DNA of 64,000 nt, from assembly GCA_008632985.1 (NCBI GenBank), contig QPGO01000127.1, forward strand, positions 62,001-126,000, in the 5' to 3' direction. The notes under the pieces are model-generated. The model was not told the origin of the DNA, did not search any database, and saw only the letters and a list, made by a program, of their open reading frames with translations. Each line of letters starts with the position of its first letter. Position 1 is the stretch's first letter. This document shows, piece after piece, positions 3,462 to 42,457 of the stretch. The translations under genes were made by a program, and so were the position numbers. The DNA comes from Psammoneis japonica (Eukaryota).

Positions 3462-3470
3462 CCCTCCCCT
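3462..3470 (-). promoter_or_regulatory. Polypurine tract (PPT)
   Basis: AGGGGAGGG on the minus strand, immediately 5' of the 3' LTR. Confidence 0.85.
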
Positions 3471-8229: not shown

Positions 8230-8670
8230 AGGAGGAGAGTCAGATTCCTTGGGAGAGTCTTCAATTGCTGGAGGCGGAGCAGAAACTTCATCCTGGGGGA
8301 CCGCAGACAGGAGCTGCGAGAGGAGGAGGAGGCGACAACGTGGAGGACATTTGGGAGGGTCCTTGACACGCAGAGCTGGACTGTCCGGTTCCTTGAGAAT
8401 GGCACTGATGGTTTTGACAATCTTCTTCTGGGTGAACTTGTGTTGTTGGGTCTTGTCTTCCCGGGCATCCGCTGTTTTACGGTGAAGGCACTCACCACAG
8501 CGGGCATTGCTGAGAAAAATGTCAAGCTCACCAGGGTCATCAAGAGATGCACCAACATTGGAGATGACAGCTCACAGCTGAAGGCAGTCTCTGAAAAGAG
8601 CACAATGGCCAAGGACCGTGAGGTTGTTTTGGTGCGGGTGGCTCTTGATCAACTCATGCGGGCGCTTCGT

Positions 8671-9912: not shown

Positions 9913-10105
9913 GGTTGCGCGGGAAAAAAAATTAAATTCCTGTGCAGAGCTCTGGCATGTGTTCTGCGGTGGTCGTTTGATCACAAATCGAGAGGTGAAA
10001 AAACAGCTGTGACAATGATGACGATTTCAACGAAGAAAAAATCGCCAAATCACACAACAGGCGTTGCAACAGAGGAGCACAGAGGAAGAGGAACAGTGCA
10101 CTGCT

Positions 10106-10115
10106 GCTCATGACC
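10106..10115 (-). promoter_or_regulatory. Putative primer-binding site (half-tRNA-iMet type)
   Basis: GGTCATGAGC directly after the 5' LTR resembles the GGTTATGGGC PBS of Drosophila copia-type elements, with one TA->CA change. Confidence 0.55.
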
Positions 10116-10286
10116 TTATGGACTAGCGGCATCGGGACAATCTAACGGACATCTGGGACAGATGAGACAATCGTGCACCAGATGAGAAAGAAAGTGAGCA
10201 AAGGAGAGATCATCGGATCTCTCCATGCTGTCCATGCCAGTCTGTCCGACACAAGGGAGTGCACTCCCCATCTCGGATGTCTGTCA
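10116..10286 (-). repeat. 5' LTR of the Copia element
   Basis: Direct repeat of 3293-3461, flanked by the TSD copy TCAAG. Confidence 0.93.
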
Positions 10287-14502: not shown

Positions 14503-15902
14503 GATGATGAATGCAACAGAATCTTCCTCCAGGACGTCCAAACGTGCCGTTCCCAGCCGTGTTGATGATCTACTAGAAGACGTTGGTGACATTCCTCTTG
14601 AAAGTAGCGCTTCGAGGAGAAATAAACGCTCGGTCTCAAAAAATTACGACACCGAAGCTCCTCCCGACATTACTCCTTGTAGCAGTGCTGAAGGTTCTGC
14701 TGCAGCCGCTTCGGATAGCAGCACAATCAATGATGAGCTAGAAGGGGATGTCAGGGGACTGACACCAAGAGGGCGAAACACAAAGTCTGGGCTAAACGGT
14801 GACGCGACACGCTCTCTGAAATGAGTAACCGCAACTCGTTCGGAAAAGATGTTTGCTTCCCGCTGGACGAGGATGGATTTCCTATAGTACCGTTTTGCTG
14901 TGCCGCAGAAGACATTGCTCATGCTACTAACGATGAAGCAGGACCATCGAATCGGGTCGCACCTCGAGTGTACGCCAATCGCATTCAGAGGTCCGGTCCG
15001 TCGGAAAGAGACTTATCACGAGAACCGCGTCTATCGGACCAAGCACGAGGTGAAGCTACTGCCGAAAATCGCAAACCAACATGTGCTATGGTTTCCACAT
15101 CGAGCGGGTTACAGATGGATGCTGCTACAATGTCCGCCGTGATGAATGATGAAGGAGTTTCTCAGGAACTGGCGTCTGCCATGAATTCACAAGAACTATT
15201 GGAAGCTTGGGAACAGCAGCACCGTTACGATGAGGCAAAGCGGGTGAATGGTAATGTGTCTCCAGACTTTTCGTTTCTAGAGCACAGCCAACCCGGTGTG
15301 GTATCGGTACGCCCGCCTCAGAGAGTCGTCACTCCCCCACCAGCAAATCGACTATCTCGAACGAGGCCAATCAATGATGCAGAAACTGCAGCAGAAACGG
15401 CAGCAGCGGTTGCTGAAAGCCACGCACCCCCCAAAAAGAGACGACGATGTCTTTTTATTTGGGTTATCGTTGTGGCGTTGATTGCTGCTGGTTCTGTTGC
15501 GGGTTTAATCATTGCACTACAGGGAAAGAGTAGTGGCGGCGGCGGCAATAACGCATCAACAACAACACAACACCCAAAGAACTACACGCCATTGTTGTCA
15601 TTCAACCAGACAAGTTTCCCCAACACATTTCGTGGATACTACGAGAGGGTGCAAAGGATGAGTTTGGAACCGTACTGAATCGCGTATCGGCCGGTCGCCA
15701 TGCACCAACCAAAACGACCATTGCTGTTCCCGTGACAGAAGGCAGCACGTATACGTTTCGTATTGCAGATTTGGGTCAAGACGGAATATGTTGTCGTGCA
15801 GGTCGCGGATACTTTTATGTGTTGCGATCCGACAATGGTAGGCGTTTGGTGGCTGGTAATGGTGACTTTGGTAAAGCTGTGCAGTACTCATTTGTGGTGT
15901 AA
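14503..15902 (+). CDS. Single-pass membrane protein with a disordered N-terminus and a C-terminal DGICC-motif domain (frameshifted)
   Basis: ORFs 14291-14824 and 14821-15678 (KKRRRCLFIWVIVVALIAAGSVAGLIIAL transmembrane segment), then an out-of-frame continuation ADLGQDGICCRAGRGYFYV...YSFVV* ending at 15902. Confidence 0.6.
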
Positions 15903-16412
15903 TAGAGAGCCGTTCATCCGGTCGAATTGTATGGCTCTTGCAAGCCGTGGTAGAACTTAGATTCCTGCAGTTGTGACATTCACGCTCGCATAGGCAGTTT
16001 GACATAAACATAGAATTTTGTGACTTAGTATATTTCATCGGGCTAGAGAACGTACGAGCTGAGATGTCAAAACCGAAGTGAGATACCTACTCGTTAGCAC
16101 CGCTTCAAGCATTTTCATTTATTGATACCGGTTCCAACGCCGCACGCTTCTCTTCTTTATTAGTGTACTCTATGATGTGGAGCTGATTGAATGAGAGACG
16201 ATGTTCCTCAAGGATAAGATGACGGAGCCATTCTTGGCGGGAACGAGAAACCGCGGATATCCGCGATCAAGACAACAAGACAGAAGACAGCACAAGAGCG
16301 CACGAGCAATACGATGCACGAGAAAAAGTCCCACACAACCTACTCACTCATCCGATAAACTCACTTTCTCCGCCACAATTTGTCTGGAGCAAAACATAAA
16401 AAGAGCGAAACC

Positions 16413-17743
16413 ATGTCCGACAATGAAGTGGAAGCCATTTCTGATTTAAGTATCGAGGATGAAGGTTCCAATCATGATGGTAGCCCGGGCAGTCCAACTA
16501 CTGCTTCATCCGAAAAGGACCAAATTCATCGTGTCGAAGCGCAGCTGTTGCGTGTGTTTGACAGTCAACGTGAACTCTACGATGATAAAGCTTCCGGGCG
16601 CCGTTATGCTGTTCCAAAAGCAAAAGAGCCTGGAGTGGTATTACCCATTCACAAGCCTCATGCTTATCCTTGTATGGATACACACAAACTCTTACCAACG
16701 GACACAAGCCTCTGGCCTCAAGCCCCCGTCATGCTGCGACCCACTCCAAACACCGACACCAAGATTCGTGGATTGAGGTATGCAAATTCGACGGACTATC
16801 AGCATTTCAAAGGATTTTGTGCGGGCTGTATTTTGCCACTTAATAACGGGTGCGAAGCGGAGGGTAAGTCTCTAGTGATTGATTTTGAATCCAAGCACTT
16901 TGTGGGAACACTCTTGTTGCGGATTCGCGATTGCCCGGCGGCATCTACTACTACCGAGAATAACAAGGCATCCAAGTCTTATTTTGATGGCAAGAAGCGC
17001 CGATTTCAAGCCGTAGTCAAGGGTCGATTCAAGACACCACTTGCCATGTCGGATTGCGTGACGGGTCAGGTATTTGATCGTCCGGCTGGAAAACTACCGG
17101 CCCGGTGGATTATTTCGTCCTTTATCAAGTTTGTGTCTACGCTTGCGCCTCAAATGGAGGCAACCATTGATGGCCATCAACCGCGTTTTCTTACGCCATT
17201 GGTGTCTACCGCTCAAACCGTCCATTCTAAACCAGTAAGAAAGGAAAAAGGACAACATGAGCAAGACCCCGACATGTCGCTGGAGGATCAAGAGAAGCTG
17301 GAGAACTATAATTTGTATGCGGGTTCCAAGGACATTGAAGCTCCAGTGGAGGAACCGCCAGCTACGGATCCAGCCTCGGTTCTCCAAGAGGCAAAGGTGG
17401 ACAATGTTCCCAACAACTCCAACAAGTCTGTATCCAATCGCCAAGCATATCGCAAGAAACGCTTCAACACCTTGTATGCCAACAATGACAAACAGTCAAG
17501 TTTGATTTGGATCGAGAATATACCTTTGAGTTTTATCAACACTTGTTGGTGTTTGGCGATACCTTTGCCCTCGACATGGGTCGGGCGATTGGAAAGGTGC
17601 CCTTGGCGCCTGCCACGGATGGCCAGCCTCTCAAATTCATGGCTGCGTATAAAGATGACGAGAGTTTGTTGGATTATCTGTGGTGCTTTGATATATGGCA
17701 TTCGAGTTTGTACCCGTATGCGCAAGCGTGTCTCGAGGAATAG
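16413..17743 (+). CDS. DUF1769-family protein (one frameshift near 17500)
   Basis: FESKHFVGTLLLRIR, YFDGKKRRFQAVVKGRFK and GQVFDRP; the C-terminus continues in ORF 17507-17743 (YTFEFYQH...GQPLKFMA...YLWCFDIWH). Confidence 0.8.
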
Positions 17744-17871
17744 TTGTGTTGCATTGCAATTCTGAGATGAGTTGTTAATTTACATAGTGAGAGTTCAATG
17801 TTCTGCTTTTCCTTCTACTTTAAACTGACTATCCTACTACTGAGGTCACTCCACACGATACGGAACCACCA

Positions 17872-18523
17872 TCAGTCCATCAAATGCAGTTTCTCTTTGC
17901 TACGGCGTCGATCCTGCTTCTTCATGGAGACACGCTTCCGCTCTCTTCATCATCGTCCTTGGCCTGGGGCAAGCTCTTACTAATTTGCAAAAGATCCTTC
18001 ATGACATCGGAAGACGAAGAATTCCAACAACCTTGTCATTGTTTACTACGGGCAAATGATGAAGCTTTTGCTGCGACATGATCACGGCAGCCTCCCTCAT
18101 GGAGGTGGTCGGCGAAACAGTTGCGGGTTTGTGAGTCATGACTTCTTCGACGCCTTGCGCTGCAATCTTCTTTGCAGCCTCGACATAGAGCTGAACCTGT
18201 TCCTCAGATCCTTCCATATTCAAGAGGGCACCACTGAATGCTTCCTTCTGTACAAAGTCATACGAACTCAGCATACCAACAAGAGATTTCGTTTCATCCA
18301 CAACGGGGGCACCAGAAAGCCCCTTCTGGAGAAGAAACGTAATGGCTTCATCGGTCGGGGTCGATACGTCGAGAGTGTATGGATCGGAAGTCATGCAATC
18401 TTCAACGCAGCGATGTCGTTGCACGGGTGTCCCGACAAAGACTCGCCGCCCTGTCGTTTCTCCGCTGGCACTTAGCCCAGACGCCGTGCCCAACAAGCAA
18501 AAAATCCAAACTCCCTTAAACAT
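17872..18523 (-). CDS. CBS-domain pair protein with an N-terminal signal peptide (possibly plastid-targeted); frameshift near 18010
   Basis: VEDCMT...LSGAPVVDE...LVGMLSSYD and VEEVMT...LHHLPVVNNDKVVGIL CBS repeats; hydrophobic N-terminus. Confidence 0.85.
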
Positions 18524-18960
18524 GCTTCTGAGCCTCAGTTTTTCAGACTATATCAAACAACAGGTGAGGAGCGTACCACAACACCCACTTCCTTCGTCGT
18601 TCCAACGCAACGCAGCAACAACAAAAATGGCCAACGCAAAATATCTTCTTGGGGTGTCATGTGTCACTCGGATGATTTGACTGTTTCTACAGAAAGATAA
18701 TACTGAAAGTCACATACGTAGATCCTGGTACTGAATCTATTAAAATTTCGAAAAATGTAGCAAGCCCATAACCAGATTACGTTTTAAGGCATATATATCT
18801 GTATAACATATAAAAATTTGGCAGAACTTGCAACGCGCTTCAAGTTGACAAACGTTTGCTCCTTCATCGTTCTTCTCACAACACGACATAACATTCGTTG
18901 TCATACATCGACCATACCTTTCCTCTTTTCTTTCATGCAGTGAGAAAACGACATCCTACC

Positions 18961-20405
18961 ATGAGCTCAGACCCGGAGCATTCCAAGCAATCCAGCAACT
19001 CTGTCTTCTCGTCAGTTCAAAAGGTGAAAAGAAGTGTGTCAAACATCATTTCGGGCGATGAAGATCACACGTGGGAAGAACTCAAGGACGTTGAGAGAAG
19101 GAGGAGAGGGGTGTTGAAACGGACCGAGTTGCCTTTCTACAGGATCTTGACGTTCTGGGATGCCACTGTCCTCCAGGTATTGGTGAAGGATTTCCTCATG
19201 TGGTTTACTCTCGCGATCTATGTCGCTGTTCGTATTCAGTCGAGAGTTGGTCTTCCTGACTATGTGTCAGATATCGCATCAGGCGACATAGGAGTTATAG
19301 GTACGCTACTCTTGTTCTTCTCTCTAGGAATCGACTTGAAGGTTCTGCGGATTGCTCTTGTGTTGCTCAATGTTGCCATAATTCCCGGTTAGGTGGCTTT
19401 CTCTCGTTCTTCTTAATCTTCTTTGTCAATCAGAGTTACAGTCGCTATATGACGCTCTATGGATACTCGATGAGCTGCGAGGGACGAACTTTTGATGTTG
19501 CATCCATTTGTAGGTCTGTTCTCCCTCGGGCAAATGCTCTGCGTCTGATTCGTTACATGAATGCAGCGGTATGTGTTGACAAAAATATGGAAAGAAATGC
19601 ATGCTTGTTGTGTTCTTCCTAGAGCCGTCTCTAACCACCTCCTTTTTGATCAAAATAGCATTTGGCTGGATACGTTGGGCTATCGTCTACGTACACCTTC
19701 AACAACTTTTTCGTGGAGGTCAATGAGACAAACAAGATGCTCACGGACAAAGAAGTTGAGCGCATGAAAGACATCGACATGAATGCCGGGGGCTCGTGCT
19801 ATCGAGAACTTATTGCCTGGTGCGTCATGGAAGTGGAAACAGCTGTTGAACAAAATTTGATTGTTCTGCGTACTGCCGTGGAACTTCGCGCCTTGATTCT
19901 CAAGCTGAGAGGATCCCTTGGGGCTCTCTACGATTACGACGATCAACCAATATTGTTTTTCTACATTCACTTTATCTGCCTGCTGTCGGCACTGTACCTT
20001 CCTCTATTTGCAGTGTCGGCAGCTTTCGAAGCTGGGACTGGGGACAATGTGTATTGGACTGCGGATCTCATGGGTGGCCTTATTGTCTTTCTACAAGCTG
20101 TCTTTGTGATTGGTCTCCGTCTTTTGGGGGTAAAGATGAGTGACCCGTACGGTGACGACGTGGAGGATCTCAGCGTCATGCATTACGTTAATTTTACCTG
20201 GCGTATGAGCAACCGCATTTTGCTCGCCAAGAAGCCCTCGAAATTGGATCCTGCGGAGGAAAGTAACATTTGCCGTACTCGGCTTTCTGTGGGAGAGGCT
20301 TGGGAAGAGAACGAAAAAAGGTACTCAACCAGAAATATCGATGATGTTGAAAGTTACACAAACGAGCCAATAGATGAATCTGGAACTCGGTGCGCCATTC
20401 AGTAA
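18961..20405 (+). CDS. Bestrophin-family channel, 3 exons (introns ~19301-19392 and ~19569-19658)
   Basis: FFLIFFVNQSYSRY, YDYDDQPILFFYIH and MSDPYGDDVEDL motifs; GT-AG introns join the segments. Confidence 0.85.
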
Positions 20406-20529
20406 AAAAGCGAGATTCGTCGCTTGGGGCTAACTACTAACTACTAATCGATGCATTGACAAGGCTTCGAACGCTCCACGTGTTCTCAAACTAGCATCCA
20501 TGTTATTTCTTTCAATCGAATCATGTTAT

Positions 20530-21760
20530 CTTTTCGGTGAAGCTGCCGCTGAGTTGGGGTCTGCAATGTGAGCAAGATGCTCGAGGTGGAATCCGCTGGC
20601 CATTTCATCATCTGTGTGTCTTCAGTGTTGATCTTCCAAACTTTGCTGTCAACACACACATGCCATGAACAATGCAGGTGACAGAATCTAAGATGTGTGC
20701 AGTGACAGTGCATTGGACACCCAAAAAATTGAGTTGGAGATCTGGTCAAAGATCTGTCTGTAAGTTCATGTGTGCCTCTCATGCAGGTGGAGGGGATGCC
20801 AACACCCTCCCCTGACATGCCATCTTCCCAGCAACATGACAAAACACAAAGCACAGCATCCCAAAAGAGAAAAAGTCAGACAGCAAATCCAAATGTTGCC
20901 AGGAGTGTTGAAGAAGAGGTGCACAGGTTTGGGGGGTTTGTGCCAGCACACATGGCTTGTGCCAGGATCATGCCCAGCGATGCGTTTTTTGCAATCCCGA
21001 GCCGGCCACACCACTGGCGCCAGATGGGTTCCAGCCCCAGGTGGGGCTTTTTGTGACATTGGGCCCGCAGAATTCTGCGTGCGAGCTCCTCAGTAAAATT
21101 GTTGAGCAATGGACATGTGAATGATCGCCAACAGAAAAAGAGGCAATTTTGCGAACGCATCTCCTCCTCCACACTTGAAGTGCATTCTTTGCAGTGTGCC
21201 CAGGTGTGTTCTTCAGACATCAAAGAACACACCCAGCGCATTTTTGTTGACACAAATGCAGACAACAGAAAGCCTTTGGCTTCACAAAACAGGCAGTGTG
21301 GAACAATTTTTTACAACAAAACACGTAGAAATGTGCGTGCAAAACATGCGATGGATGACAAAAAAATGATTGTGTCACAGTTCAGTGGTGTGAGATCCCA
21401 CCTGCAGCTGGAGCACGTCGCCACACCAGAGAAGAGTCGCAAGAGCAGAGGAAGGGGAACAAATGCTGTTCACACCCCCTGGGAACCCACACACATTGGC
21501 TTGATGACAAAATGCACTGTGATGTTGGCTCCAAAGTCTCTTGAGGACATTCTCGCCACACAAGAACAAGAGGTGTGTGTGGGGTGGTGGGGGCGTCTCA
21601 TGAGGCATCGTTGGTTGAAAGGTTGCTTTTTGCGGCGGCTTTGCAAGACAGTCTCCTCTGCTCATTGCCTTTTGTTCGAACATTTTTTGAGCAAAGCAGT
21701 GCCGATTTTCAACCGAAAATGTCATTGTCATCTCTCATTAATTTTCTGTTGCAATGAGGT
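20530..21760. mobile_element. TpA-depleted degenerate repeat island containing a nested MITE
   Basis: Local loss of TA and CG between the bestrophin and HSF genes; contains the MITE at 21023-21419. Confidence 0.55.
21023..21419. mobile_element. ~400-bp MITE, copy 1 (4-bp TSD GCCA)
   Basis: Imperfect ~24-bp TIRs (GATGGGTTCCAGCCCCAGGTGGG...CCCACCTGCAGCTGGAGCACGTC); GCCA at 21019-21022 and 21420-21423; colinear homology with 24383-24782. Confidence 0.85.
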
Positions 21761-22387
21761 TTATGGTTTTTAGGATTTTGTGCTTTTATAACTTCGCCGA
21801 GCATGCATGCATGGCATGCGCCATCGGTGAAGTGCTCTCGGCGGCGGGGTTGATTGGCCTGAGTGACTGAGTCAGACATCCAAGTGTCATTTCTACGTGG
21901 GAACCGGTAACTCCATCCGCAGAGCAGGAACAGAATCAGAATCCGCCACCAGGCCAAACTTATGTCTTCTACCAAAGCTTTGAAAGTTTATATCGGCTGT
22001 TGCCACGTCGGCGGCAGCTTGCAGAAAAGATCTTGTACGGAGCATTACGTATCGCTTACGTCGCACATTTCTAAAGGCGGCGCAAGGACATGAATGAGAG
22101 AAGCCCAACAGGTGTATCTGACCAATCAGATCGTTTGAAATGAAGAGTGACGTGAGCACGGCGTCAAACGGTGTGACATCATCCAATCTGTTTCTTTCGT
22201 CTGTGTCTTTCCCCCCACGTAGATTTGCGTAGAATTCCAGTATGGCGTAAACTCACGAGGCAATTTTGAAATTCGGGCGGGAAACGTCCTTGCGTGGCAA
22301 GTGGCAACATCAATCATTTCACTCTTTGAAACAAGAGCAATTTTACATGCAGGGAGAGTGGACTCTGTCTTCTAAGCTAAAGTGACA

Positions 22388-23340
22388 ATGCAAAGCCTTT
22401 CCCATGGAGCAAACCAACAGGGTGGTCTATGTCACCTTGTCGAAGCTGCAACGGCACTTTCAAGCTTAGTAAAGACGTCTCCATATTCTTCTTTCCCTCC
22501 GAACTCTGCCATCACAAAAAGTGCCCCGACGCCTTCAGTTGTGAGTGTCAGCGACGACGAGTCCGCCGAAGTATCCAAGAAATCCCCAACGAGCAAGCGA
22601 CGAGAGATCTTCCTCAGCGTCTTTTGACAATCCTGAATGATTCGTCCCTTTCCGACGTTGTTTCGTGGTTGCCACACGGACGCTCATTTGTTATTATTCG
22701 TCCCGATACGTTCGCCTCTCAAGTTCTCCCCAAGTATTTGCCATCCGACAAGAGCTCCACCAAGTACCCATCCTTCACGCGAAAGTTAAATCGCTGGGGA
22801 TTTCGACAAGCCACACGAGGGCCAGATACTGGAGCCTTTTATCATCCTCTCTTCAATCGGGACAAGCCAGAGTTGTGTCTCGGTATGGTATGCCAGAAAT
22901 CAAGGAAAGGTAGCATCAAGCGTTCGACCAAGTCGAGCAACAAGAAGGAGCAGGATCACAAGACTTCACAAGACACCCCATCCACACCCAAAAAGCGCGC
23001 TCCATCACCACCACAAGGCTCTTCTCTTCCCCCCAAGAAAAGAAAAATGATGACTGCGTCTTCAGAACCCATGGCGGAAGAGAAGCCTGCTATTGTTACT
23101 CCGCCGCCTGAACAAAAGGTAGCAGCGCCGTCACTGGTTACAACGGCGACTGCTCCTTCATTTCCCATTATCCTACCAAGTGCATCCATGGCGAGAGGTG
23201 TGGCCCCTCTCTCTGCATTGGTCCCGACGGATCCAGAGTTTGTTGCAGCGACGCTCAAGGTGCGAGATAACGTGGAGAAGATGGCAGTTGCCAAATGCAT
23301 GCTATACGATGCCTACCTCAAGGCATTGGATGGACGCTGA
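22388..23340 (+). CDS. Heat-shock-factor-type transcription factor (frameshift near 22610)
   Basis: HSF DNA-binding domain: PQRLLTIL...VVSWLPHGRSFVI...KYPSFTRKLNRWGFRQ...FYHPLFNRDKPELC. Confidence 0.92.
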
Positions 23341-23468: not shown

Positions 23469-24973
23469 TGTGAAAGCCTCACAAACTGAATCGCCTCTTG
23501 GTGAAGAGACATGTCATATCTCGTTTACGGGATAATGATTTGGTACATCTGCCAGGCATTCGTACAACAAAGAAGTTGATGTCACTTCAGTTATCTCGCA
23601 TGGAATTCACCAACTGTTCGAGCTCATTCAAACTCTGCCAAGTCTTTTAGATCCATCACTCTCTGCGCAGCGACATCAAAATCCAGCTTCGCGATTCGCG
23701 CGACGATAAGTGAAATGCAGATGACGACATTGGGGGGGTTCGCATGGGCCTATACTTTGGAGCGAAGTGAAAGATGATGTGGACCCAATCGCCGCGCGCG
23801 CACACATTGGGGGGACACGTCAGACACCAATGTGAAAGCCGTAGCCTCACAAACGGAATCGCCTCTTGGTGAAGAGACATGTCATATCTCGTTTACGGTG
23901 ACAGGACAATGATTTGGTACATCTGCCAGGCATTCGTGCAACAGAGAAGCTTGATGTCACTTCAGTTGTCTCGCATGGAATTCACCAACTGTTCGAGCTC
24001 ATTCAAACTCTGCCAATCTGTCAGATCCATCAATCTCTCTGCGCAGCGACATCAAAGTCCAGCTTCGTGATTCGCGCGATGACAAGTGAAATCAGATGAC
24101 AACATCAGGGGGGTTCGCACAGGCCCATGCTTTGGAGCGAAGTGAAGGATGATGTGGACCCAATCGCCGTGCGCGCACACATTGGGGGGGCATGTCAGCA
24201 GTGTGAGAGCCTCACAAACTGAGTCGCCTCTTGGTGAAGAGACATGTCATGTCTCGTTCATGGTGACAGGACAATGATTTGGCACATCTGCCAGGCATTT
24301 GCACAACAGAGAAGCTTGATGTCACTTCAGTTGTCTCACATGGAATTCACCAACTGTCCGAGCTCATTCAAACTCTGCCAATGACGGGCTCCAGCATTCC
24401 CAGGTGGGACTCCGTGTGACATTGGGCCCACAGAATTCCACGTGCAAGCTCCGCAGTGAATTTGTGCTGCAATGAAAACACAAATGATTGCCAACAGAAA
24501 AAGAGACAATTTTGCGAATGCATCTCCTCCTCCACGCTTGCAGCACATCATTGATGGTTTGCCCGGGTGTGTTCTTCAGACATCAAAGAATGCACCCAGC
24601 GCATTTTCATTCTCACAAATGTTGAAAATAGAAAGCCTTTGGCTTCACAAAACAGGGAGCATGAAACAATTTTGTAGAGTGCGACACACAGAAATGCACG
24701 TGCGCGACATGCGACACGATCCAAAAAACTGTTGATGTCACAGTGCAGCAATGCGAGGTCCCACCTGGAGCTGGAGCACGTCCAATCTTTTAGATCCATG
24801 ACTCTCTGCACAGTGACATCAAAACCCAGCTTCGCGATTCATGAGACGACAAGTGAAATCAGATGACAACATTGGAGGGGGGTCGCATCGGCCTGCACTT
24901 TGGAGCGAAGTGAAAGATGATGTGGACCCAATCGCCGCATGCTCACACATTGGGAGGGGACACGTCAGACACC
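23469..24973 (+). repeat. Three tandem copies of a ~365-bp unit; the third is interrupted by a MITE
   Basis: Copies start TGTGA(A/G)AGCC at 23469, 23831 and 24202; copy 3 resumes at 24783 after a 400-bp insertion. Confidence 0.92.
24383..24782. mobile_element. 400-bp MITE, copy 2 (4-bp TSD CAAT)
   Basis: TIRs GACGGGCTCCAGCATTCCCAGGTGGGAC / GTCCCACCTGGAGCTGGAGCACGTC; CAAT at 24379-24382 and 24783-24786. The empty site (CTCTGCCAATCT) is visible in tandem copy 2. Confidence 0.92.
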
Positions 24974-27900
24974 CAGCAACTTGTCAAGCCCCCGCCCACT
25001 GCCACATGCGCACCACCTTGCCCATGCTGCATGTGTTCCCAGCATGTGCAAATGCATCTTCAATCAGATTCAAAAACACAGCTCATGATGAGTGGGATGG
25101 GATGTGTCCCACGCATGAGTTTTGGGCATGTCCCTCCAGCCACCTGCTGCAGCTGGTGCTGGTGGGTGTCCAGGCTGTCACATCTTGTGGGGGGATGAAC
25201 TTTTGTTTTTAGGCTGGCAGCACCACGTCTGGAACCCCGCTCCCAACAAGAGCACAGCAAGTTGCAAGAGAGATTTCTCAAATTGCGCAGCTGATTTTTG
25301 CGTGCATTCATGAAATTGCACTCCTGCAACATTTAAACTGAACATGTTTCAACTTGCGTGTGGCCAATCTTTTTTGCATTTTAACATCACAAGCTGACCA
25401 GCCAAGACCCACCTGCCCTGTTTGAAGAATTCTTCCCATTGCGCGCTGCTTCATCAAACAAACAACTTGATGTCAACAACACAAGCTGGCAGCTTGGAAG
25501 AGTTTGAAACCATTCCAGAAGAGCGAGAGCCACACAGCTTCTTGTGTGAAGCCCAAAACATGACACAGGCAGCAACTGGAGAGAGGCTCCCACCTCACAC
25601 TTTTTTGTTCCACCCCAAGTGCTCTCCAGGTGGGGCACATTGACGCGCCATCAGAGCTGGGCATTTTTGAACAAAGACAGGCATGGCACAAAATTTGCTT
25701 GACATTTTTGCACAACAAAAATCATGTTAGAGAAACACTGTTGTGTGGCACAGTTGACACAAGGAGAAAATTGCTCACACACTGGAATTTGCCGCAGTGA
25801 GTTTTTTGGCCATGCTGAAGAGCATGTGAGTGGACCTTGGCCTTTGAGCATGGTGGCATCCAGCCAACAATTGCACTGCAAAGCTTCCGTTTTTTTGTTG
25901 TTTCAAATGTGCAGCTGCTGCTTGTTCTGGGAAACAATTGCCCCAACTTGTCAAAAAAGAGTGCAGCCCAGCTGCAAAGCAAGCGACGCTTGTCATCCAG
26001 CAGCTTGGCTTTTGTGCCAACAGCCTCAGCAGAAGTTGGCCAAAAAAAATGCAGACAAGTTTGGCAGAAATTGGTGGGAAAACAAAAAAATGCAGACAGC
26101 TGTGACACAAGATGAAGCACTGGGCATTTGCAAGGCAATGACTTGTTTGCAAGAGCAGCAGATCTTGCTTTCCTGGTGCTCTGGGTGAGACCTTGTGGTG
26201 CTGGGCCGTGGCAGAACTTTTTTCACATGCTGCACAAAAGCCACGCACATTCCTGCATGCATGAGCACTCTTTTGAAATGTTGTTCTACACACACAGCAT
26301 TTTGCAAAACCAACAAAATTTTGTTTTTCAATGATTTCCAACAGCAGAATCAGGCTGATCACTGACTTCAATGTTCAGTGTCTGAAGAAAGCAACTGAAA
26401 CACCAGAAATGACACAATCCAGGCATGAGCACTTGAAGTCAGCTGCAAAATTGCACCCTTTTTTGTTGGGAGTTGCTGGCCCACTCCTTGCCCAGTGGGC
26501 TCTGAGCAATGTGGAAAACTGCAGATTTCTGCATGTGAGCTCTGCACTCTGCAGTTCATGCACCAGGTGATGAGTGCATTTGTTTTTGACATCTGAGCAA
26601 ATGACCAAGCTTGCGGTGCATTGTTTGTGCCTCTCAACACTCAAAGAAGTTTTTGGAAGTCTGCCTGCATTGTGCAGCTCTGCTGTCAAAGGTTGTCGAG
26701 TTGATTGCCCAATGACTGTGCTCATTTTTATGAGCTCCAATTTGCAGAGAAGTTCACTGTGAGATCTGCTGCATTTTCACATGGTTTGTGCCAATTGCTT
26801 CACAGGGTGACATCATTTGACATCCCCGCCAAACTGTTTTTCTTTGGACACAACACATTTTTGCTGGACAGAGAGAACTGTGGGCACATTTTGCACAGCA
26901 CACAACTTGCAGATTGTTGTGTGCAGGGGTGCAGAGACAACCTTTTGGCAAGTTCCACTGCAGCTGCGCATGATGCAGCCAAGCTGACAGGCAGTGCACC
27001 TCGCTGGTTGATCAGGGGCAGTTGTGCTGCAAAACAATGCAAAATGTCATCAAAGTCATGTGGTGTGCAGAAGTGCATGTGCGCGACACATGGTGCATGA
27101 CAAAAAAGTCAAAGTCAGAGTCAGAGTCAGCGGTGTGAGGTTCCACCCAGAGCTGGAGTGCACTGCCCAGCAACTCTTCTGCAGAGCTTGCACACAGAAC
27201 TTTGTGGTCCTGACATCACAGGGGATGCCTCGGCCCACTTGCATGTTGACAACACAGACTGCACTTGCCAGTGTGGGTCCAATGTGGCACAGCTGTCGTG
27301 AGGTCGCATTGTGGGACCAAAAGAGATGCTGCACAAATTGACCAACAATGAAAAAACATTGACGATGCCTGCAACATGTTCCTGTGCTCAACAACAAGAA
27401 AATCAATGAACAGCAGCCACAATTTTTGCGTTTGTGGTTGCAATTTCCACAGACACCCCATTTGCTCAAACTTTGACCATGCTTCTTTCTGTTGTGCTTG
27501 CTCATTTAAAAGTCACACATCTGGCATTTTTCTGAAAGTTGTTGGTGTTCACAGATTGCAGCTGTGGCTGCATTGAATGTGCAACGTCTCATTGTGTGAA
27601 GTTTCATCTTGTCAAGAGTGCACTCATTTGGTTGGAAGACCTTCCATTTGATTGCCCATTGTCTGCATTTCAGGGTGTTTCTTCTGCACTTGTCTTTCTT
27701 TGCTTTGTTGGACACCACACAACTTCTTGTCTGCCAGCCCATTGTTCCAGCAACAATGGTGTGCCTTTGCTGCAACCTGGTTGCATGTCTCACAACAACA
27801 ACAAGTGTGCTCTCCAGATGTGTGCTCATCTTCCTTCTGGCTTGGCCTCAAGATCTCCCAGCCATTCCCTTGACTTGGTGGGCTCTGATGGGCTCACATC

Positions 27901-30900
27901 TGTCTCCACTCCAGACCTTTGTTTGACGTCAGCATCTCTGGCAATGACTTTTCTTCTGTTTGCTCATCTTCATTTTTGACTGTGCATGACAATCAGCCAC
28001 AGTTTCTTGTTCAGCAAAAGCTGGTTTTTCTTTCCCTGATGCCTCTGCCAGCATTGCACTTGGGTGGCCAACACCTCCAAGAATCCACCAAGTCAGTCAT
28101 TGGCAGCTCTGCCAGTTGGCAAACAAAAACAAACCATTTGCAGCCATTCCCCTGAGACCAGCCCCACCTGCGTGCACCCAAAACCTGTGAAGTGCAGCAA
28201 GGAAATTGCACTTTCATTGAATGACAAAATGGCTGAACTCATTCAAAGCAACAAGCTCAATGGGATCTGTTCTGTCCTCTGTTGCTGGCTGCCTCCTTTG
28301 TCTCAACACCTGTCTGCCATCAGCTCTGTTGGCATGGACAAATCCACATTGAATGTGGCAGCAGAGGAGCTTCTGGAATTGACACACAGACTGAGAGTGC
28401 CGTGGCCAGAGATGGCAAAAGCCCAAGTCTTCACAAGGAATGAAGAGGCCAAAAACTTTCAGGAAACATCAAGGTCATTTCAGCAAGTGAGCCCATTGTC
28501 CACATGCCAAGGAACACAGAGATGAAAAGATTTGGATCTACAAAGCTCATCCAAAGCATGTGGACAAAGTTGGTGATGGCTGCATGACTCTCACCCTGCT
28601 TGCCAGCTGGCATGTGAGTGTGTGGCACAAACAAGTGGCAGCAGTGACAGGAAGGAATGGCGCAAGACCCACACAGTGGTGTGCTGCAAAAAGAAAACCT
28701 TCTTCATGATTTTGTGTGCTGCAGAGTTTTGCTCCTCTTGTGACAAAACAATGTTGGCCGGCAGGTCCTTGCGCAAATCTGCAGTGGTGTGCTGACCTGT
28801 CAAAGAGAGGATGACAGCAAAAGGTTGGAAAGCAGTGTGCACCCAGAATGGAAAAGACAAATTGCTTTCAACAGCAGATTTTGAGCCACCAAGTGGAAGC
28901 TTGGGCTCAGCAGATTTTTGACTGTGTGTGCCAAAAGATTGGCTTTGGAGCCTGGGCTCCATGGCTGATTGCTCCATCAAAGCTGATCCCCAGCACCTCA
29001 GCAGCCACATCTGGCTCTGGCCAGTGTTCTTCAATTCCACACATTCCATGTCATGGCACACACTGAAATCTGTCAATGTGACTGTGTTTTGTGTGGAAGA
29101 CGCAACTGACATGATGCATTTCTCCACAAGTTGCCACGGTGGTGTGTGGTTGTTTTTGGCCACTTCTTTTGACTTTGCAGTTGCAGAAGCAGCAGCACCA
29201 AACAACAATGTGAAGCAGATGCCGTGTGTGTTGTAAAAGAGATGGTGAGCTGTGGTTTCTTTCTTGCCAAAACAGACTTGTTCTGTTCGCAGGATTTTGC
29301 AGCTCTGTCGTGGATCACAAACAGTTTGTGCATGGGGTCACTGAAACAGCTCTGTCTGGCACAGAAACAACCACATGGACCAATTTGGATGTGGTGGATT
29401 CAATGAGAACATTTTTGTGCTGAATGAATTTAGAGTGGTTGAAATGGCTGAGAAGAGGGCACACAGTGACTTTCTTTCAAGTTGATGGTTGCTGAAGTCA
29501 CAACAAGGCTGTGGTTGTTGCACTCAACAAAAAAGAGAAATGACACCTGCAGACTGATCAAAATGTGGCAGTCATGATGGTGTCATTTTTGTTGTCTTGA
29601 GCAGGTGGAACTGCTGTGCATGGTCACCGCCATTGTTTTGTTGGGGCGCGTGCTTCTCTGTGCTGCACTGTCATGTCTGGGCAAAGGAACCCCAAGGGGT
29701 GCTTCAAGCTGGTGGCGAAATCCATTGTGGCACAGAAGCAGAAAGATTCTGAAGTGTTTGGGTTTTGGATTTCCCATGTTTCCATCAATTTGTCAGCCCC
29801 AAAAAACAATCTTTTAGACCCATTTTCCCCTCCAAGAGTGCAGCAGCATTTGGAGAATGCGCCATCAAGGGTGGCAACAAACAAGTCATTGCCAGCCATT
29901 GGCAGAAGCACATGATCCATTTGGGCTTGAAGGTGAGCCACAAAAGTGCTCCATTCTTGGCCTGTGACAGAGACAAGGCACCGAGGCCACCCTTCTCCCA
30001 AAACCTTTCACCAATGGAAGGTGTGACAAGTGCTCTTGTTGGTGAGTGCAAGACCCACCGCAAGAAGCCATGCTCACAAAGGGAGAGTCAGGTGTTGCGC
30101 CAACATCAAGGAGTGATTGGAAATTCATGGCACACCCCCAGCCTTTTGTTTCAAGAGAAAGCCAGCATCTAAAAGAGCATCTTGCTCAACCTTTGATTTC
30201 TCCACTTTGTCAAAAAAACCTTTGATGTTTTCCAGAGCAATCAGCTCACCAGCATGGAGGGTTTGCCTCTGGGCTTTCTGGTGCAAGCTGTCATGACAGC
30301 AATGTCAGCAAGCCTTTCCTTGAGGGTGCTGTGCTTGAACTTGCAAAACAGACAAACCCTCCTCACCTTGCTTTTGAAAGGCAGCATGCACACCCTCCAA
30401 GAAAAGGCACGCCAGTGGAGCAGCACAGGTTTGTCCAATTTGTTGCACAGTGTGTGATGCTGGGTGGCCCCAGTGAGATCCCTGTTCTTGAGCAGCGGAG
30501 CTTCACCCAGCTTGTCAAAAAAGACAAAAATTTCCCACACAGAGGGCAAGACATCATTTGCACTGGCTTGAGCATTGGCTTGGTTTGCAGGAGGTGCTGC
30601 AGCTGCAGCAGTGCAAGGACCATGACTTCAAGGGCTTGCCCTCATGCCTTGCAAAGGAAGTTGGCCTCTTCCTCTGCCACCTCAATGGCCACCCCCACAA
30701 CCTCCACATGGCCACTGTCAAGACCACCACAACCTCTTCTTCCAGCAGCCTGGTGCTGGCAAGTGTTTGGCATGATGACAGCCCAGCAGCAACACAGAGG
30801 TTGTTGTGTGTGTGTGCAAGTGTCATGGCAAAGATTGCTTGCTGCACTCAGAAGTCCCACAAAACTGCAAAAAACACTGTGCACATGAGCACAAATGCAA

Positions 30901-33900
30901 AAATTTTAATCTTGGCAAGAGCAGATTGTTGTTGCAAAGAATGAGGTGTCAACATTCTGCAGACGCAAATGCGCTGCATCTGATTAAACAGTGCTCCACC
31001 CACAGCCACAAACCACATGACAGTTCACAAAAAAATGCCCAACAACATGGGCAGCAGAATGACTCTCATTTGTGTCATTTGAAATTTTTGAAATCATTGC
31101 AAACATGTGTGATTGTAGAAATAAAAAAGAACAGCCACTTGCACAATGAAACATGCAATGATTGCCAGGCTTGCTGGCTCAGCATTGGGCCAAAGCACAC
31201 ATCATTGCCACCACCACACAATGGCATTGCAGGAAGGCACAAACAAAGCCAAGGATTGTGCACACCCTGACAAAAAAAGCCATGAGAAAAGCAAGAGGCC
31301 AGAAGTGTGACATGCAAGCAGGCAGCACTCAGATCATGCAAATGACTGACAATTTTGCCCATGCTTCAAACTCGCATGTGAATTGATGCAAGTGTCAACT
31401 TGCGTTGAACATTGTGCTGCAACATTGCACACAGATGAGCAGAAGCGCATTGTTGTGAAACCATTGGAACATTCAAAACTCACAACATCTCTGCTTTTTC
31501 TGGCAGAGGTGTTTTGCTGTGGCCTTCCTTGCACAATGAATGGTGTGCACACAGCCAATGTAAAGAGAACCAGCAAGATCAATGTGGGGGGTGGACATTC
31601 TCAGAAATGAGCCACATTGGCAATTTGTTGCACATGTGCAGTTGTCAAGATAAAAATCTGACAAGTCACATGCACTGCTCATCATTGTTGTTTCCCACTT
31701 TGCCAATTTGCTTGGTTGTCAGTGCAACAACATTCATGACAATCACACCACAAATGTGCACAAAAATTGCACGCTGCAAGACCAGATTTCAGGTTTTTTG
31801 TCAAGCACAGGTCAACAACTCTGAGCAAGAGCAACAACATTTTCCAGACAGACTGTGAGACAAAGACAAGGCACAGCACTTGCAGCAATGGCCTGTGGTT
31901 CATGCCCCCTGGTTTGCAAAGCTGAAGGCTTTCTGCACTCTTCATTTGTGGCTGCAAAATGGGCCCAGGCAAACCAGAAAGGACCTGCTTTAAGTGCAAT
32001 GAGGACACACATTTGCAAAATTGACTCTTTTTCTGTTGTTGAGCATTCATGTGTCAATTGCTTGGTTTGCTGTGGAGCTTGCACATGTGGAATTCCATGG
32101 GCCCATGTGTCACATGGATTTCTGCCAAGAGAGCCAGAATGTTTCTGGCGCTTCTCAAGGGCCTTCTGCTGCATGGTGATGACAGTCAATGCAGCCAAAG
32201 ATCTGCTCTGATTGTCAAAATGTGCAACTTGCTGATGATGGCTCCATTGGTCAATGGATGACATGAGTTCTCAAAAGAGGCATGTTTGTTGGGTGTGACA
32301 GCAGCTTGCAGGGCTGCAATGCTCCATTGGATCTGGTGGTGCTTGGCTTTTGTTGACATTGTGCCAACATGCTTTGTTTGTCCTTCTTGTTGCAGAGCCT
32401 GTTGCGCTGGCTGTGCAAACAAAATGGCATGGGATGTGCTGCCACTGGCTTGGAGAAGATGTCATCATGTGCTCTCACATTCACAAAGTTGAGTTCCCTG
32501 AGAGGACATTGCTGTTGCTGCTTTGGAAAGAAAAGGGGGTGCTCCTGCTGAACTCCCACACATGGCTGATGCGTGCACTTCAGCTCCTCAGCAAGGGGCT
32601 GTTTGCTGTCGCTGGCCTGCCACACAGCTCAGCCATGACAAGGGTGCCTCGAGCCAATTTGATGCGTTGCCACAACAAGATTGGACTTTTCTGTGTGCTT
32701 TCACACCATCACTGCTTTCAGAGCTCAGAGGGAGAGTGTGCTTTCTTTCAAACAGAGGATCCCCTCCTTGTGCACCCAAGAGCATCGCAGCCACTGTGAG
32801 ACATGTTTTTCTCTTCGCCAGCGGTGCTGATTTCTTTGCATTCTCCTCTTGCTCCATTTGGCACAAGCAACATGTTGACTCTCATTTTGCTCTGGGTTTT
32901 TGTTGCTCTTCTTCTTCAGAATCTCCAAAACACAAGTGCTGTCATTGGAAAGCGAGTTTTGTCAGTGCAGGCAAAACATTCCCACAAAGGATGTTCCCAA
33001 GATGTGGGTCGCTCATCCAGGCTCACATTGTCACACAAGCATGGGCCCTTGTCAATGTCATCTGCTGACCTGCCATCAGGGTGTTGCTGTGCTGATGATC
33101 ATGCAAAACTGCAGCTGGCAGGAGTGTCTGTTGTTGGGAGTGTTGCGTGCATGGACCAAAGACAACATGACACCCTGGTCATCATGAAAGCACAGACTTC
33201 AGCTTTTCACATGAACAAAGGGGGAAGACATGTTTTGCTGCAAAAAGTCAGCTCAGTTGTGAGTGCACTTGCTTTGTCCTGTTGCAAGAAGCTGTGCCAA
33301 CTGCAGGAAGCATGTGGGCTGGGCTCTTGTTTCGCGCTGCAGAGCTCCAGGTGACACATGTGGAGCCCTCCCAGGCCTGGGACTGGAATGCATTTGAAGA
33401 AGAGAGGCATTGTCATCTGCCCATGATGCTCCTTCAACTTGTTTGGCACACCAGCATGACTGTGTTGCACACAGCTTGGAGCCTCAGCATGAATTGTGAG
33501 AAGTTCTGGCTCTGGCTCAAATGTCGTTGCAAACAAGGGGTTTTTGGGGGGGGCGAGCCCCGCCACACACCAAGTCTCAAGTGCCTGGCACCTTTGCTCA
33601 CACCAGCTGCAGCAACAGAGAGGGGCAACAGACACAGCTGAGAAGAAGCTGGGTGGGAATGAAGACGTGCAAGGCAGGCATTTGCCTCTCTGTCCAAGTC
33701 AGCAGCACATCGTCTGCCGCAAACAAAATGCGTGCAGCGCCGCACCTCTCTTCTTTGCTGCTGCTGCTTGATCAGCTTGTTGGCACATCTCACACACTTG
33801 TCAGTTTGTTGCATTGGTGTGGTCATTTTGATGTGTGCTCTGAAGTTAAAGTCACTGTCTCTGGCTCGCTTCCGTCCGTTGGCTTTTTTGGCTGCCAGAG

Positions 33901-34200
33901 TGTTTGTTGAAAAAGAGAGCCGGGGGGAGTGCAAAAGCACTCCTCTCTCACCACTGCAAGACACAACAAGGGGGGTGTCAAACATCTTCCCAAAAACATC
34001 TTCACTTCCTCAAGCAAAAGTCTTTCAACCTGTGTCTGTTTTCTTACCTTCACAATCCAGACTGCTGGCTTTGGCTTGTGGTGTGGCGCCTGCGCGATTG
34101 GTGAATGCGCGAGACAGCTGGAAGGTGTCGAGATGCAACGGGCGCGCGCGCGCGGGGCCGAGCGATGAATTTTCGAAGAATTTCTGCGGCGGATCAAAGC
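24974..34200. mobile_element. Long, heavily degenerate unclassified repeat tract depleted of both TpA and CpG
   Basis: About two dozen TA dinucleotides in ~9 kb by eye, few CG, and an excess of TG/CA. Only short Cys/His-rich spurious ORFs. Confidence 0.6.
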
Positions 34201-39761: not shown

Positions 39762-40380
39762 TCTTCAAACTATCTTAGATTATTGTTACTGCGCTAGGCC
39801 GTTTGCCTTGTTGCCATGGTTGAACGCACTTTGGAGTGAAGTGGTACCATGGGGATAATAATTATGCGTGAGATTTTCGCAAACGCGATGCACTCGTGGA
39901 TTCATTACGGAGAATGGACGTTGAAACGAACGTACGTCGGATTTTCTCCGCAATGTTACTTAGGGTTGGATTTTCTCCGTGCAAAGTTAGTTAGGGTTGG
40001 CTTACCGATTTCCATGTGCATCACTTTTTCGGTTAAATCGAAGAGCAGGTATTCAGCATTCGTTTAACGCATGGATAAGAGAATCTAAAAGAACTGTCTA
40101 TTCCACGATCAGTTCAAGGTGGATCTGGTACAAATGACGTGGTGTCGAGAGATTGTCCAGTCAAGACTCCTTTGGAAAGTTCTCAATCAAACGTTTTACA
40201 CGTCGTTCAACTTTTCTTTATAATAGGTCATTGATGACGCCATGCGGCTTTGTTTTTGGATATCTTTTTGTCTGTATACGTTGAAGGGTGTGGTTGTCCA
40301 TTCCACGTTGAGATGACGCGGTGTATGTCAAGAGAATGTCCGTGTCAGGACTCGGAAAATTCTCAATCACGAGTTACATA

Positions 40381-42364
40381 CTACGAAATACCTAACAATT
40401 GTCATAATTAAAAGTTGCAAATTTCTTTTACAATTTTTCAGTCAACCTCAACAAAAGTTCAACAAAATTTGCGAGCTTCGCTCTCGTACACATGTACGTA
40501 CGGCTAGTACTCTGACGTCATGTGATGGCGGCAAGAATCATCAAAACTGATTCCATCAAACCAAAACGAGCAATGATCGTCTCATTGCGACGAGGAAATG
40601 GAAGCAGCAATGCTGTAGACTACACAATATACAATGCAGAATGACCCTGCGGATCAAAGGGCTTCTGCCCGTATTACCATTAGGGCACACAGAGAGCTTG
40701 GAATGACACGTGCGCGGCTTCCCGACCCATCTTACGTGGTGCATGCCTAGGGCATCCAGTTTGGTTCCGCGAAGCTGGACTGCAGCAATTCTTCAATGGT
40801 GACGACATCACTGTATCAATACGATTTATTGAGGCGAGTAGGAGGTACAGACCAATTTGCATTTGCTGATTTTGTCAACCAGGTGCTGTCTTCAATCGAG
40901 GCGAACCCAATTGCCGGTTTGGACGACCCACCGAATTGTGATGTGGGACAATCTCAACTCGCATCTCACTCCACTCGTAACCCAAACAGTGGAGGGTCGC
41001 AATACTCCAGGACATCACTTTCAAATAGCCCAGAGACCACCCTACTAGCCCAAGGATGGTCCTGTGGAGTGTGCTATTTGCCAGATCCTCACGGACCGGC
41101 TTTTTTCCCATCAACAGCCTCCACGATCTGGAGCAACAAATAATCTACACGGTTGCCGCCCAAGAGTTGCACGGTATTGCTAATACCTTCCACAACTGTG
41201 GCTACATTTGGAACTAGTGTGATAGAATAAGAAAAAATAGATAGAGGCCAACTCTACAATACTTTTTACTACTCGATAGAATGTCAATCCAACATCGACT
41301 AGTATTGATAGCTTGTGCTACTACCGGTATCGTGAGAGGTGCCAACAAATAGATACTATTTTTCAGTCAAGTCTACCATACAGCCTATTGCTCTATTGGA
41401 TATAGTAGCAAATCCTGCAATGCCAAGTCTCAAGTCCTTCCGCGGCGACATCATAATAGCTTCTGCTCTCGTCGCTACCTTGACTGGCGTCCATCATGCC
41501 ATTCCTAATGTTGTCTCCAATGATACCTTGAAGTATTTCAAGCTGCCTCTGTGGTGCAGCCCTGGTAGCCTGAGTCTCAAAATCATTTAGATGCTTTTCA
41601 AGGTAGGCATCCTTCATGATTTTGGTTCTCTGGATACAGAGAAATAGAAATCACAGTATCAGTAGAGCCACAATCAAAAGAACATGCAAACAATACTACC
41701 TTCAATAGACTTGCCTCGTGCATTGCGTAGCTTGCATCGTATGGGCAGCAACAAATAGCACAAGAACACATCCGTCCAGTCTGCGTTCCAGCTGCGTTTG
41801 CGCGCCGCCGCCGTCGCACCCGATATTTTGAGATTGTGGATCTCGGCGACAGCATGCTCCTCTGTCGGTCCTTGGAAGTTAGCCTTTACAGGCCTCTCCA
41901 TAAATGCTACCAATAGCTTGCGTTTGTTTTCTATCTTCATCACACTGCTTCCTTTCAGTGCGGTGAAGCCGATGTCGTCTTCAACACGACGACTCAACAC
42001 GACCCTGCAGCTCAACCGACGTCTGCTCCGGTGGCGGTTGAGTAGACGCTGCAGATTCATCCCCGGTATGATTGGGGATGCCTCTCGTGCCTGTATTGAC
42101 AATAGAAATGTTTGTTGGGAGCTGTGACATTGTTTATCAAGAGTATAGACAAGACGAGCAACGCCATCGTCAACCTTGACTGCGGATAAATTCTGGTGTT
42201 TTTCTTGGTCTGCCAGTCGTCAGAATCGAGTGTACTGAGAAGTCCGTAGGTTCTACGTGATGCCGAAACCGCGCCACTTTAGTTGAACTTTTGTTGAGGT
42301 TGACTGAAAAATTGTAAAAGAAATTTGCTACTTTTAATTATGACAATTGTTAGGTATTTCGTAG
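40381..42364. mobile_element. Non-autonomous Tc1/mariner-like DNA transposon: 83-bp TIRs, TA target duplication
   Basis: 40381-40463 is the reverse complement of 42282-42364 with one mismatch; TA at 40379-40380 and 42365-42366. No transposase motif recognised inside. Confidence 0.88.
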
Positions 42365-42457
42365 TAAGAGTTCAGCGCTGATTGCTGATTGCACCCGCAC
42401 TCGCGCGCTGGGGATGCGAGTGATGTGAAAACTAATGGCAACATACAGTATTTGTTT

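Follow-up and report, generated by a model that had tools for sequence, protein, structure and literature searches.

A two-base flank rule for surviving TpA in the TpA-depleted domains of a diatom-like genome

The only report so far of regional hypermutation of TpA to TpG or CpA is a 2026 preprint on the chlorarachniophyte Bigelowiella natans. It describes TpA-specific hypermutation of two integrated viral regions, at a rate that direct measurement in mutation-accumulation lines put about 1000-fold above background (bioRxiv 10.64898/2026.01.13.699255). Here, we analyze a 64-kb stretch of DNA (the window; positions 62,001 to 126,000 of contig QPGO01000127.1, Psammoneis japonica assembly GCA_008632985.1) in which transposon-bearing domains are nearly devoid of TpA. 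The few TpA that remain in these domains lie mostly within TYTA and/or TARA, i.e., TTTA, TCTA, TAAA, or TAGA, and this flank rule is the subject of the present analysis.

As far as the main text of the preprint describes its system, the likeness to the window is close. In both systems, A:T>G:C changes occur only at TpA, and the strand decides whether TpG or CpA results. Each is limited to discrete stretches of foreign or mobile DNA, with TpA-poor, CpA- and TpG-rich clusters that include reverse transcriptase genes, and the mean TpA frequency of 0.0018 in the low-TpA group of B. natans coding sequences compares with 22 TpA in 9,261 bases (0.0024) here. The two cases differ in host, a chlorarachniophyte there and a genome with diatom-like genes here, which is a feature of the described case rather than of the mechanism. 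They also differ in their targets, which are giant-virus and virophage inserts in B. natans and long terminal repeat (LTR), long interspersed nuclear element (LINE)-like, and miniature inverted-repeat transposable element (MITE)-like elements plus adjacent repeat DNA in the window, and in that CpG is depleted too in the window. The main text of the preprint gives no context beyond the dinucleotide (the words "context," "flank," and "trinucleotide" occur 0 times); its supplements and figures may hold a sequence logo. Our literature search turned up no second report of TpA-directed hypermutation, in diatoms or elsewhere. We conclude that the process in the window is a real effect that matches the kind described for B. 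natans, in a new lineage and with a new specificity fingerprint.

Repeat-induced point mutation (RIP) of ascomycete fungi resembles the present process in that it hypermutates repeated or mobile sequences regionally, by transitions and at the DNA level, with a preferred dinucleotide and some spread into neighboring DNA. RIP converts CpA to TpA and thereby raises TpA, as paper abstracts also describe. The direction here is the opposite, with TpA destroyed and CpA and TpG created (rho of 0.03 to 0.07 for TpA versus 1.46 to 1.88 for CpA and TpG in the depleted tracts). The feature to set beside RIP's dependence on duplication is that the Copia and MITE families of the window are multicopy today, read depth giving present copy number and not that at the time of mutation. 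In somatic hypermutation, DNA polymerase eta mutates WA motifs and targets ApA as well as TpA. It shares with the present process A>G transitions and TA as a hot context, but a WA spectrum should erode ApA, and AA and TT are not depleted in the TpA-poor tracts (rho of 1.23 to 1.31).

The natural target adenine of the tRNA deaminases TadA and ADAT follows U33, and eukaryotic ADAT substrates include U-A-G-A and U-A-A-N anticodon loops. These are the very contexts that resist here; the likeness is one of specificity only, in that T is required before the adenine and sensitivity in the window is greatest with a pyrimidine on the 3' side. A TadA-8e variant is described as editing A preferentially in a "YAC" context (PMC13109818). 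ADARs act on RNA, with G enriched 3' of the edited site (PMC5663115). They resemble the present process in making A>G changes with U or T preferred 5' of the adenine and differ from it in that DNA is the substrate here and a 3' G is not favored.

Surviving TpA follow a flank rule

Calculated per 2 kb of the window, the TpA odds ratio falls to 0.01 to 0.07 in both long TpA-poor tracts, compared to 0.49 to 0.78 in normal parts, while those of TpG and CpA rise to 1.4 to 2.0. When each tract is taken as a whole, TA and CG are the only depleted dinucleotides and TG, CA, and, mildly, GC the only enriched ones. One of the two tracts (tract B) forms domain B (positions 23919 to 34050), about 10 kb with 24 TpA and two sharp edges, which contains the tract from 24790 to 34050 in which the rule was first noticed (rho for the domain, 0.04 for TA, 0.22 for CG, 1.84 for TG, and 1.88 for CA). 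Domain A (2577 to 14026) comprises a Copia-like LTR retrotransposon (3297 to 10286, minus strand; LTRs at 3297 to 3461 and 10120 to 10286) and an older, unidentified tract (10331 to 14000; rho of 0.03 for TA and 0.19 for CG). The TpA map shows sharp domain boundaries with normal DNA next to them. The domains carry Copia-like, LINE-like, and MITE-like elements.

An earlier note, which counted by eye, had claimed that nearly all of the roughly two dozen TA sites in 24790 to 34050 lie in the four contexts, where chance would put about a quarter of them. Enumeration of every TpA gives 22 sites, 21 of which conform; the sole exception, at 34045 (tctTAcct), is at the domain edge. The 12 positions cited as examples were correct, apart from 31115, which is 31116. 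The note's statement that a majority of survivors in 3288 to 14000 follow the same rule also agrees with the full count (23/35), as does its remark that TCTAAC is kept in both LTRs, at 3320 and 10143. Its chance level is close to all of our baselines, which range from 20.7 to 26.7%: 347 of 1,299 TpA (26.7%) in normal DNA of the window, 2,445 of 11,825 TpA (20.7%) in 60 nondepleted metagenomic relatives of the Copia element, and, within 24790 to 34050 itself, rule flanks at 272 of 1,072 TpG (25.4%) and 283 of 1,091 CpA (25.9%). Binomial probabilities are 1.5e-11 for 21/22, 1.6e-6 for 23/35, and 2.3e-6 for the Copia element only (17/27 versus 20.7%).

When about 1,330 degenerate flank patterns of 1 to 3 nucleotides, folded over both strands, were scanned without bias, TYTA (folded with TARA) came out as the most significant pattern, with 56 of 76 survivors from all depleted tracts versus 347 of 1,298 normal TpA (odds ratio of 7.7; p=2e-16). 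This disposes of chance, or ascertainment by eye, as an explanation with any appreciable probability: it is true that the rule was formulated from the tract on which it was counted, but it also holds in tracts that were not used to frame it (17/27 in Copia and 6/8 in the old tract). A logistic fit locates the effect. Relative to A at the same position, survival odds rise 6.0-fold with T at -1 (95% confidence interval of the log-odds, 1.23 to 2.60), 3.8-fold with C at -1, and 3.4-fold with T at -2; positions -3 and -4 are not significant, and the whole effect sits at -1 and -2 and at the mirror positions +1 and +2. The rule, strand symmetric as the earlier note had proposed, is confined to two bases on each side; the symmetry is evident among the 77 survivors, where 21 have the upstream flank only, 25 the downstream flank only, and 10 both. 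Survival also varies with the +1 base, A being least sensitive and C and T most (survival index of 0.059 for G, 0.024 for C, and 0.021 for T).

The share of rule-conforming sites grows with the depth of depletion. It rises from 26.7% in normal DNA to 17/43 in a partly depleted LINE-like tract (57001 to 62000, plus strand; rho for TA of 0.20), which is an intermediate stage of depletion, and then to 17/27 in the Copia element (0.07), 6/8 in 10331 to 14000 (0.03), and 23/24 in 23950 to 34050 (0.04). We conclude that the flank rule for surviving TpA is a real effect.

Mutational direction and the origin of the survivors

The direction of change was read from the Copia open reading frame (ORF; 4153 to 6927), compared with 22 homologues over 541 conserved columns that yielded 109 unambiguous one-step changes. 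These include 27 A>G changes, 23 of them after T, and 21 T>C changes, 14 of them before A, along with 16 G>A and 10 C>T (6 before G); each type of transversion occurs only 1 to 6 times. In the encoded protein, Tyr stands at 0.18 times and Cys at 3.4 times its frequency in the homologues, and 24 columns of conserved Tyr now read His (10), Cys (9), Tyr (2), Phe (2), or Met (1). Together, these changes indicate that TA became TG or CA, on both strands about equally.

Three sets of repeats bear on the level at which the process acts. The two LTRs differ by 12 substitutions in 167 columns, all 12 of which are changes among the states TA, TG, CA, and CG, with 0 elsewhere, and 4 TG-versus-CA double swaps are among the differences. 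Similarly, TG/CA swaps dominate the differences between a MITE-like insertion (24383 to 24781; 399 bp, with 13-bp terminal inverted repeats) and its paralogue at 21023 to 21419, which are 79% identical. The insertion lies inside a tandem array of 365-bp units (23469 to 24382, resuming at 24782 to 24973), and the left edge of domain B falls inside unit 2 of this array, at about 23919 to 23937, some 450 bp from the insertion. Unit 1 is unmutated, keeps its TA and CG dinucleotides, and serves as the ancestral reference. In the affected units, the copies of a single TA site differ in outcome, TG in one and CA in another, and CG has likewise changed to TG or CA in units where TA changed. The LTR pair, the MITE pair, and the array that crosses the domain edge show that TpA to TpG/CpA hypermutation acts on chromosomal DNA after insertion and is bound to domains rather than to elements. 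CpG decays in parallel, more slowly than TpA, with a rho for CG still at 0.58 in the Copia element (3288 to 10330) compared to 0.19 to 0.22 in the older tracts (10331 to 14000 and 23950 to 34050).

The remaining TpA could be survivors or newcomers, and several sites can be polarized. TCTAAC is common to both LTRs. The TA at 24791 to 24792, in TTTTAGA and hence with both flanks protective, corresponds to TA in unit 1, which is unmutated, and to CA in unit 2, which is mutated. The TA at 24676 is kept in both MITE copies, as TAGA in one and TTTA in the other. Across the affected units of the array, site-copies outside the rule are mutated in 12 of 12 cases and those within it in 2 of 3. Of 11 TAs in the Copia ORF, four of the five polarizable ones that conform to the rule stand in codons that match conserved residues (Leu, Leu, Phe|Thr, and Tyr), and two of four outside the rule are derived (5606/5607 and 6500). 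The former arose by G>T and is absent from all contigs of other copies in the public DNA run X1. Judged from these comparisons, rule-conforming TAs that can be polarized are mostly ancestral survivors. The rule thus describes survival, and part of the noise is new mutation. The earlier note's view of the remaining TAs as escapees accordingly holds for most of the rule-conforming ones, and some TAs outside the rule are instead newly created.

Protection by the flanks is relative rather than absolute, as identical TYTA sites are mutated in sister copies. Under assumed ancestral TpA densities, the decay of the rule class is slower by about 3.7, 2.4, and 2.1 times in three tracts, so that rule sites would be lost roughly 2- to 4-fold more slowly, an estimate that is inferred rather than measured. 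The word "protective," which the earlier note had used, is then apt for a slower loss that leaves mostly ancestral survivors, and only in a relative sense.

Products of the process also carry a trace of direction. Within 23950 to 34050, TYTG outnumbers TYCA by 181 to 104 and CARA outnumbers TGRA by 189 to 92 (Fisher p=1.9e-13), whereas normal DNA gives a ratio of about 1.07 in each of its classes. A literal reading of these counts would be that, of the two adenines in a site, the one with R-A after it on its own strand escapes and the one on the opposite strand is attacked; a site with one flank would then be lost at about half speed.

Explanations for the flank effect

We consider it probable that a context-dependent mutator, which converts TpA to TpG or CpA, operates in transposon-derived domains of this diatom-like nuclear genome. 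Such a process would turn TpA into TpG or CpA, an A:T to G:C change on either strand, within discrete domains, and its rate of loss at each site would be set by the two bases on either side of TpA. A 5' pyrimidine next to TA (T more than C), itself preceded by T, would slow the loss, and so would the mirror image, a 3' purine (A more than G) followed by A. R-TA-Y sites would be lost first and, as TpA approached zero, the remainder would become almost purely TYTA/TARA. The flank effect would then reflect the mutator's substrate preference, with each flank mainly shielding the adenine that has R-A after it on its own strand. The foremost candidate would be a DNA adenine deaminase with a requirement for T on the 5' side and an aversion to a stack of purines on the 3' side.

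A route through thymine modification would also give a strand-symmetric outcome. Hydroxymethyluracil at TpA in dinoflagellates would be a precedent for it; our literature search for hydroxymethyluracil at TpA in these organisms found no paper. The comparison with candidate spectra that the earlier note had called for went against DNA polymerase eta, whose WA spectrum is disfavored as ApA is not depleted (rho of 1.23 for AA and 1.28 for TT in tract B), and not against an adenine deaminase. The enzymatic specificity that the note had read from the rule is a reasonable inference, and context-dependent repair, a bound factor, or base modification would give the same pattern.

Several observations weigh against a mutator whose substrate preference is the one described above. 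Its protection is incomplete, as GTTTACG is mutated in tandem unit 3 and a TAAA site in 2 of 3 MITE-related copies. The direction bias is absent in the Copia element (42:69 versus 85:92, p=0.11) and weak in 10331 to 14000 (p=0.055), and in the old tracts it is inseparable from CpG decay, which feeds the same TG and CA pools. One-flank survivors in tract B number 17, about three times the roughly 5 expected if protection were strictly additive per strand, a sub-additivity with z of about 1.8. An analysis of gains that depended on the baseline gave near-exclusive TA>TG in Copia; it was dropped, since the protein-polarized changes stand at 23:14 and the conserved Tyr became Cys in 9 cases and His in 10. 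The data set is also small, the 76 surviving sites all coming from a single window.

The metagenomic Copia relatives also weigh against it; among the 80 collected, none is fully TpA depleted. Those that are partly TpA poor show no enrichment for the rule (9/44 and 87/389 versus 20.7%), and the rule is therefore not replicated outside the window. They may come from other organisms or owe their low TpA to another cause. Loci with TpA-poor interiors are L075 (4903 to 6361), L053 (2057 to 2790), L041 (784 to 1515), and L052 (2275 to 2962), with 4 to 6 TpA per 500 bp compared to 16 to 17 in their flanks. Residual TAs in such interiors are mostly CCTA, GCTA, and GTTA, not TYTA/TARA.

Of the alternatives to a mutator with a substrate preference, protection from outside survives best, although we regard it as unlikely. 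The mutator would then have no flank preference, and TYTA/TARA duplexes would be shielded by a base modification, such as adenine methylation at TARA-like sites, or by a DNA-binding factor. It is in keeping with such shielding that one flank suffices for strong enrichment and that one-flank sites outlast the additive model, as shielding of the duplex would give. The graded, roughly multiplicative effect of -1 and -2, on the other hand, resembles a substrate preference and not an all-or-none recognition site, and the mirrored bias toward TG or CA in tract B suggests unequal treatment of the two adenines within a site.

Somewhat less probable still is context-dependent repair, in which lesions such as hypoxanthine:T would form equally at all TpA and be removed better in TYTA/TARA. 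Since the sequence records fixed mutations only, damage and repair look alike in it; this explanation requires, however, a repair enzyme with a two-base flank preference that is exactly the inverse of the damage pattern.

It is also improbable, by a slightly wider margin of doubt, that the present TAs are mostly new. They would have been re-created with a bias, through C>T changes at TYCA (G>A at TGRA) in the same silenced DNA, such as would follow from deamination of cytosine or 5-methylcytosine that favors a 5' TY. CpG does decay to TG/CA within the same domains, the old tracts have an excess of TYTG/CARA, and one Copia TA (6233, tttTAcca) occupies a position that is His in 17 of 22 homologues, consistent with CAC>TAC in TYCA. 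Against this, the rule-conforming TAs that can be polarized are mostly ancestral (the TCTAAC of the LTRs, the MITE TA, the TTTTAGA of unit 1, and 4/5 in the Copia ORF). Moreover, a context-free process would place only about 26% of new TAs in the rule, so that a bias of about 60-fold would be needed.

RNA-level editing is very unlikely. Hyperediting of element transcripts by an ADAR-like enzyme, followed by their reverse transcription into DNA, would suit the two affected elements that are retroelements, and A>G after U is the preferred ADAR neighbor context (PMC5663115). Yet the two LTRs of a single insertion show independent TG-versus-CA outcomes, a DNA-type MITE and nonmobile tandem units are affected, and the domain edge lies inside a repeat unit. 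Both strands are mutated about equally, and the 3' G that ADARs favor is the context that survives better here than C or T (0.059 versus 0.024 and 0.021).

Elements of the window and implications

The Copia ORF encodes a retroviral integrase SH3-like domain above the Pfam cutoff and an RVT_2 match below it (23.2 bits; cutoff, 31.6). Relatives of the element are 41 to 51% identical; few of them are named, and these come from the diatoms Nitzschia and Cylindrotheca. With TAA and TAG lost, the Copia tract (3800 to 10026) has extended open frames on either strand, also in frames that overlap, e.g., 4146 to 5057 (minus), 7855 to 9021 (plus), and 8671 to 10026 (minus). Tracts free of TAA and TAG are an annotation hazard, as they yield long false ORFs on both strands that would mislead gene callers.

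In the LINE-like element, RVT_1 is found in the ORF at 58700 to 62461. The coding strand of this region (56300 to 62500) is extremely pyrimidine rich, with 39.5% C, 28.4% T, 17.3% G, and 14.8% A and a GC skew of about -0.4. A small TpA-poor domain (20528 to 21700) surrounds the second MITE-like copy, an inverted fragment related to the MITE-like element lies at 31964 to 32118, and the first kilobase of the window (1 to 1000) is also TpA poor, with 5 TpA per 1 kb. No Pfam domain scored above its gathering cutoff in 91 stop-to-stop ORFs of at least 70 amino acids in tract B and 16 ORFs of other tracts; the single weak match was to DUF7445 (E=0.006; 17.2 bits; cutoff, 27).

A single public DNA run, X1 (share of words, 0.71), and no RNA run were listed as containing the sequence. 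Read depth was taken from X1 over 2501 to 22500, where single-copy depth is about 55. It reaches 1,500 to 5,500 over the Copia region and 44,000 in the bin over the MITE paralogue, which suggests about 30 to 100 copies of Copia and about 800 of the MITE-like family. The tract at 10.5 to 14 kb has a present depth of 37 to 135. The run differs from the window at 1,958 places in this interval, with a spectrum dominated by transitions. The old TpA-free tract (10674 to 14103) shows 0 differing letters over 3,277 bases, and the adjoining normal genes (14828 to 20383) show 9 over 5,217. A second copy, 11 to 14% diverged, covers 10707 to 12204.

Normal parts of the window carry host genes for an HSF-type factor (22381 to 23340, just upstream of the tandem array), bestrophin, histone deacetylase, importin, and O-acetylhomoserine sulfhydrylase. 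The best named relatives of the last are all from diatoms, at 68 to 78% identity, and the closest cluster to a Duc1 protein is also of diatoms; these relationships indicate that the genome is diatom-like. Together with the named relatives of the Copia element, they led us to reject a fungal reading of the window. A homologue search with a 5'-nucleotidase ORF gave no match at E<=1e-10. Two further repeat pairs lie in normal gene-rich DNA, a short inverted pair (40379 to 40473 and 42272 to 42366; 95.8% identity) and a direct pair (54727 to 54811 and 54930 to 55013; 88% identity).

The signature known from B. natans, found on ordinary transposons in a diatom-like genome, would extend the process to a major algal group and would tie it to transposon control, beyond integrated viruses. 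The flank rule takes the signature beyond description to a specificity that can be tested, in that it predicts which oligonucleotides a candidate enzyme should edit and which should resist. It already counts against ADAR-like and Pol eta-like spectra, and it can be compared with the 231 de novo TpA mutations already listed for the B. natans lines. More tentatively, and with the balance of probability against it, diatoms and chlorarachniophytes may share an old, chromatin-targeted DNA-editing defense that erases TpA from silenced mobile DNA, with an editor that reads NN-TA-NN strand by strand and attacks the A after T unless purine-A follows. If such a defense is indeed shared by the two lineages, the hexamer code would be a direct biochemical signature of the editor, could pick the enzyme from among candidates (an adenine deaminase or a thymine-modifying enzyme), and could be used to scan other genomes of SAR (stramenopiles, alveolates, and Rhizaria) for the system.

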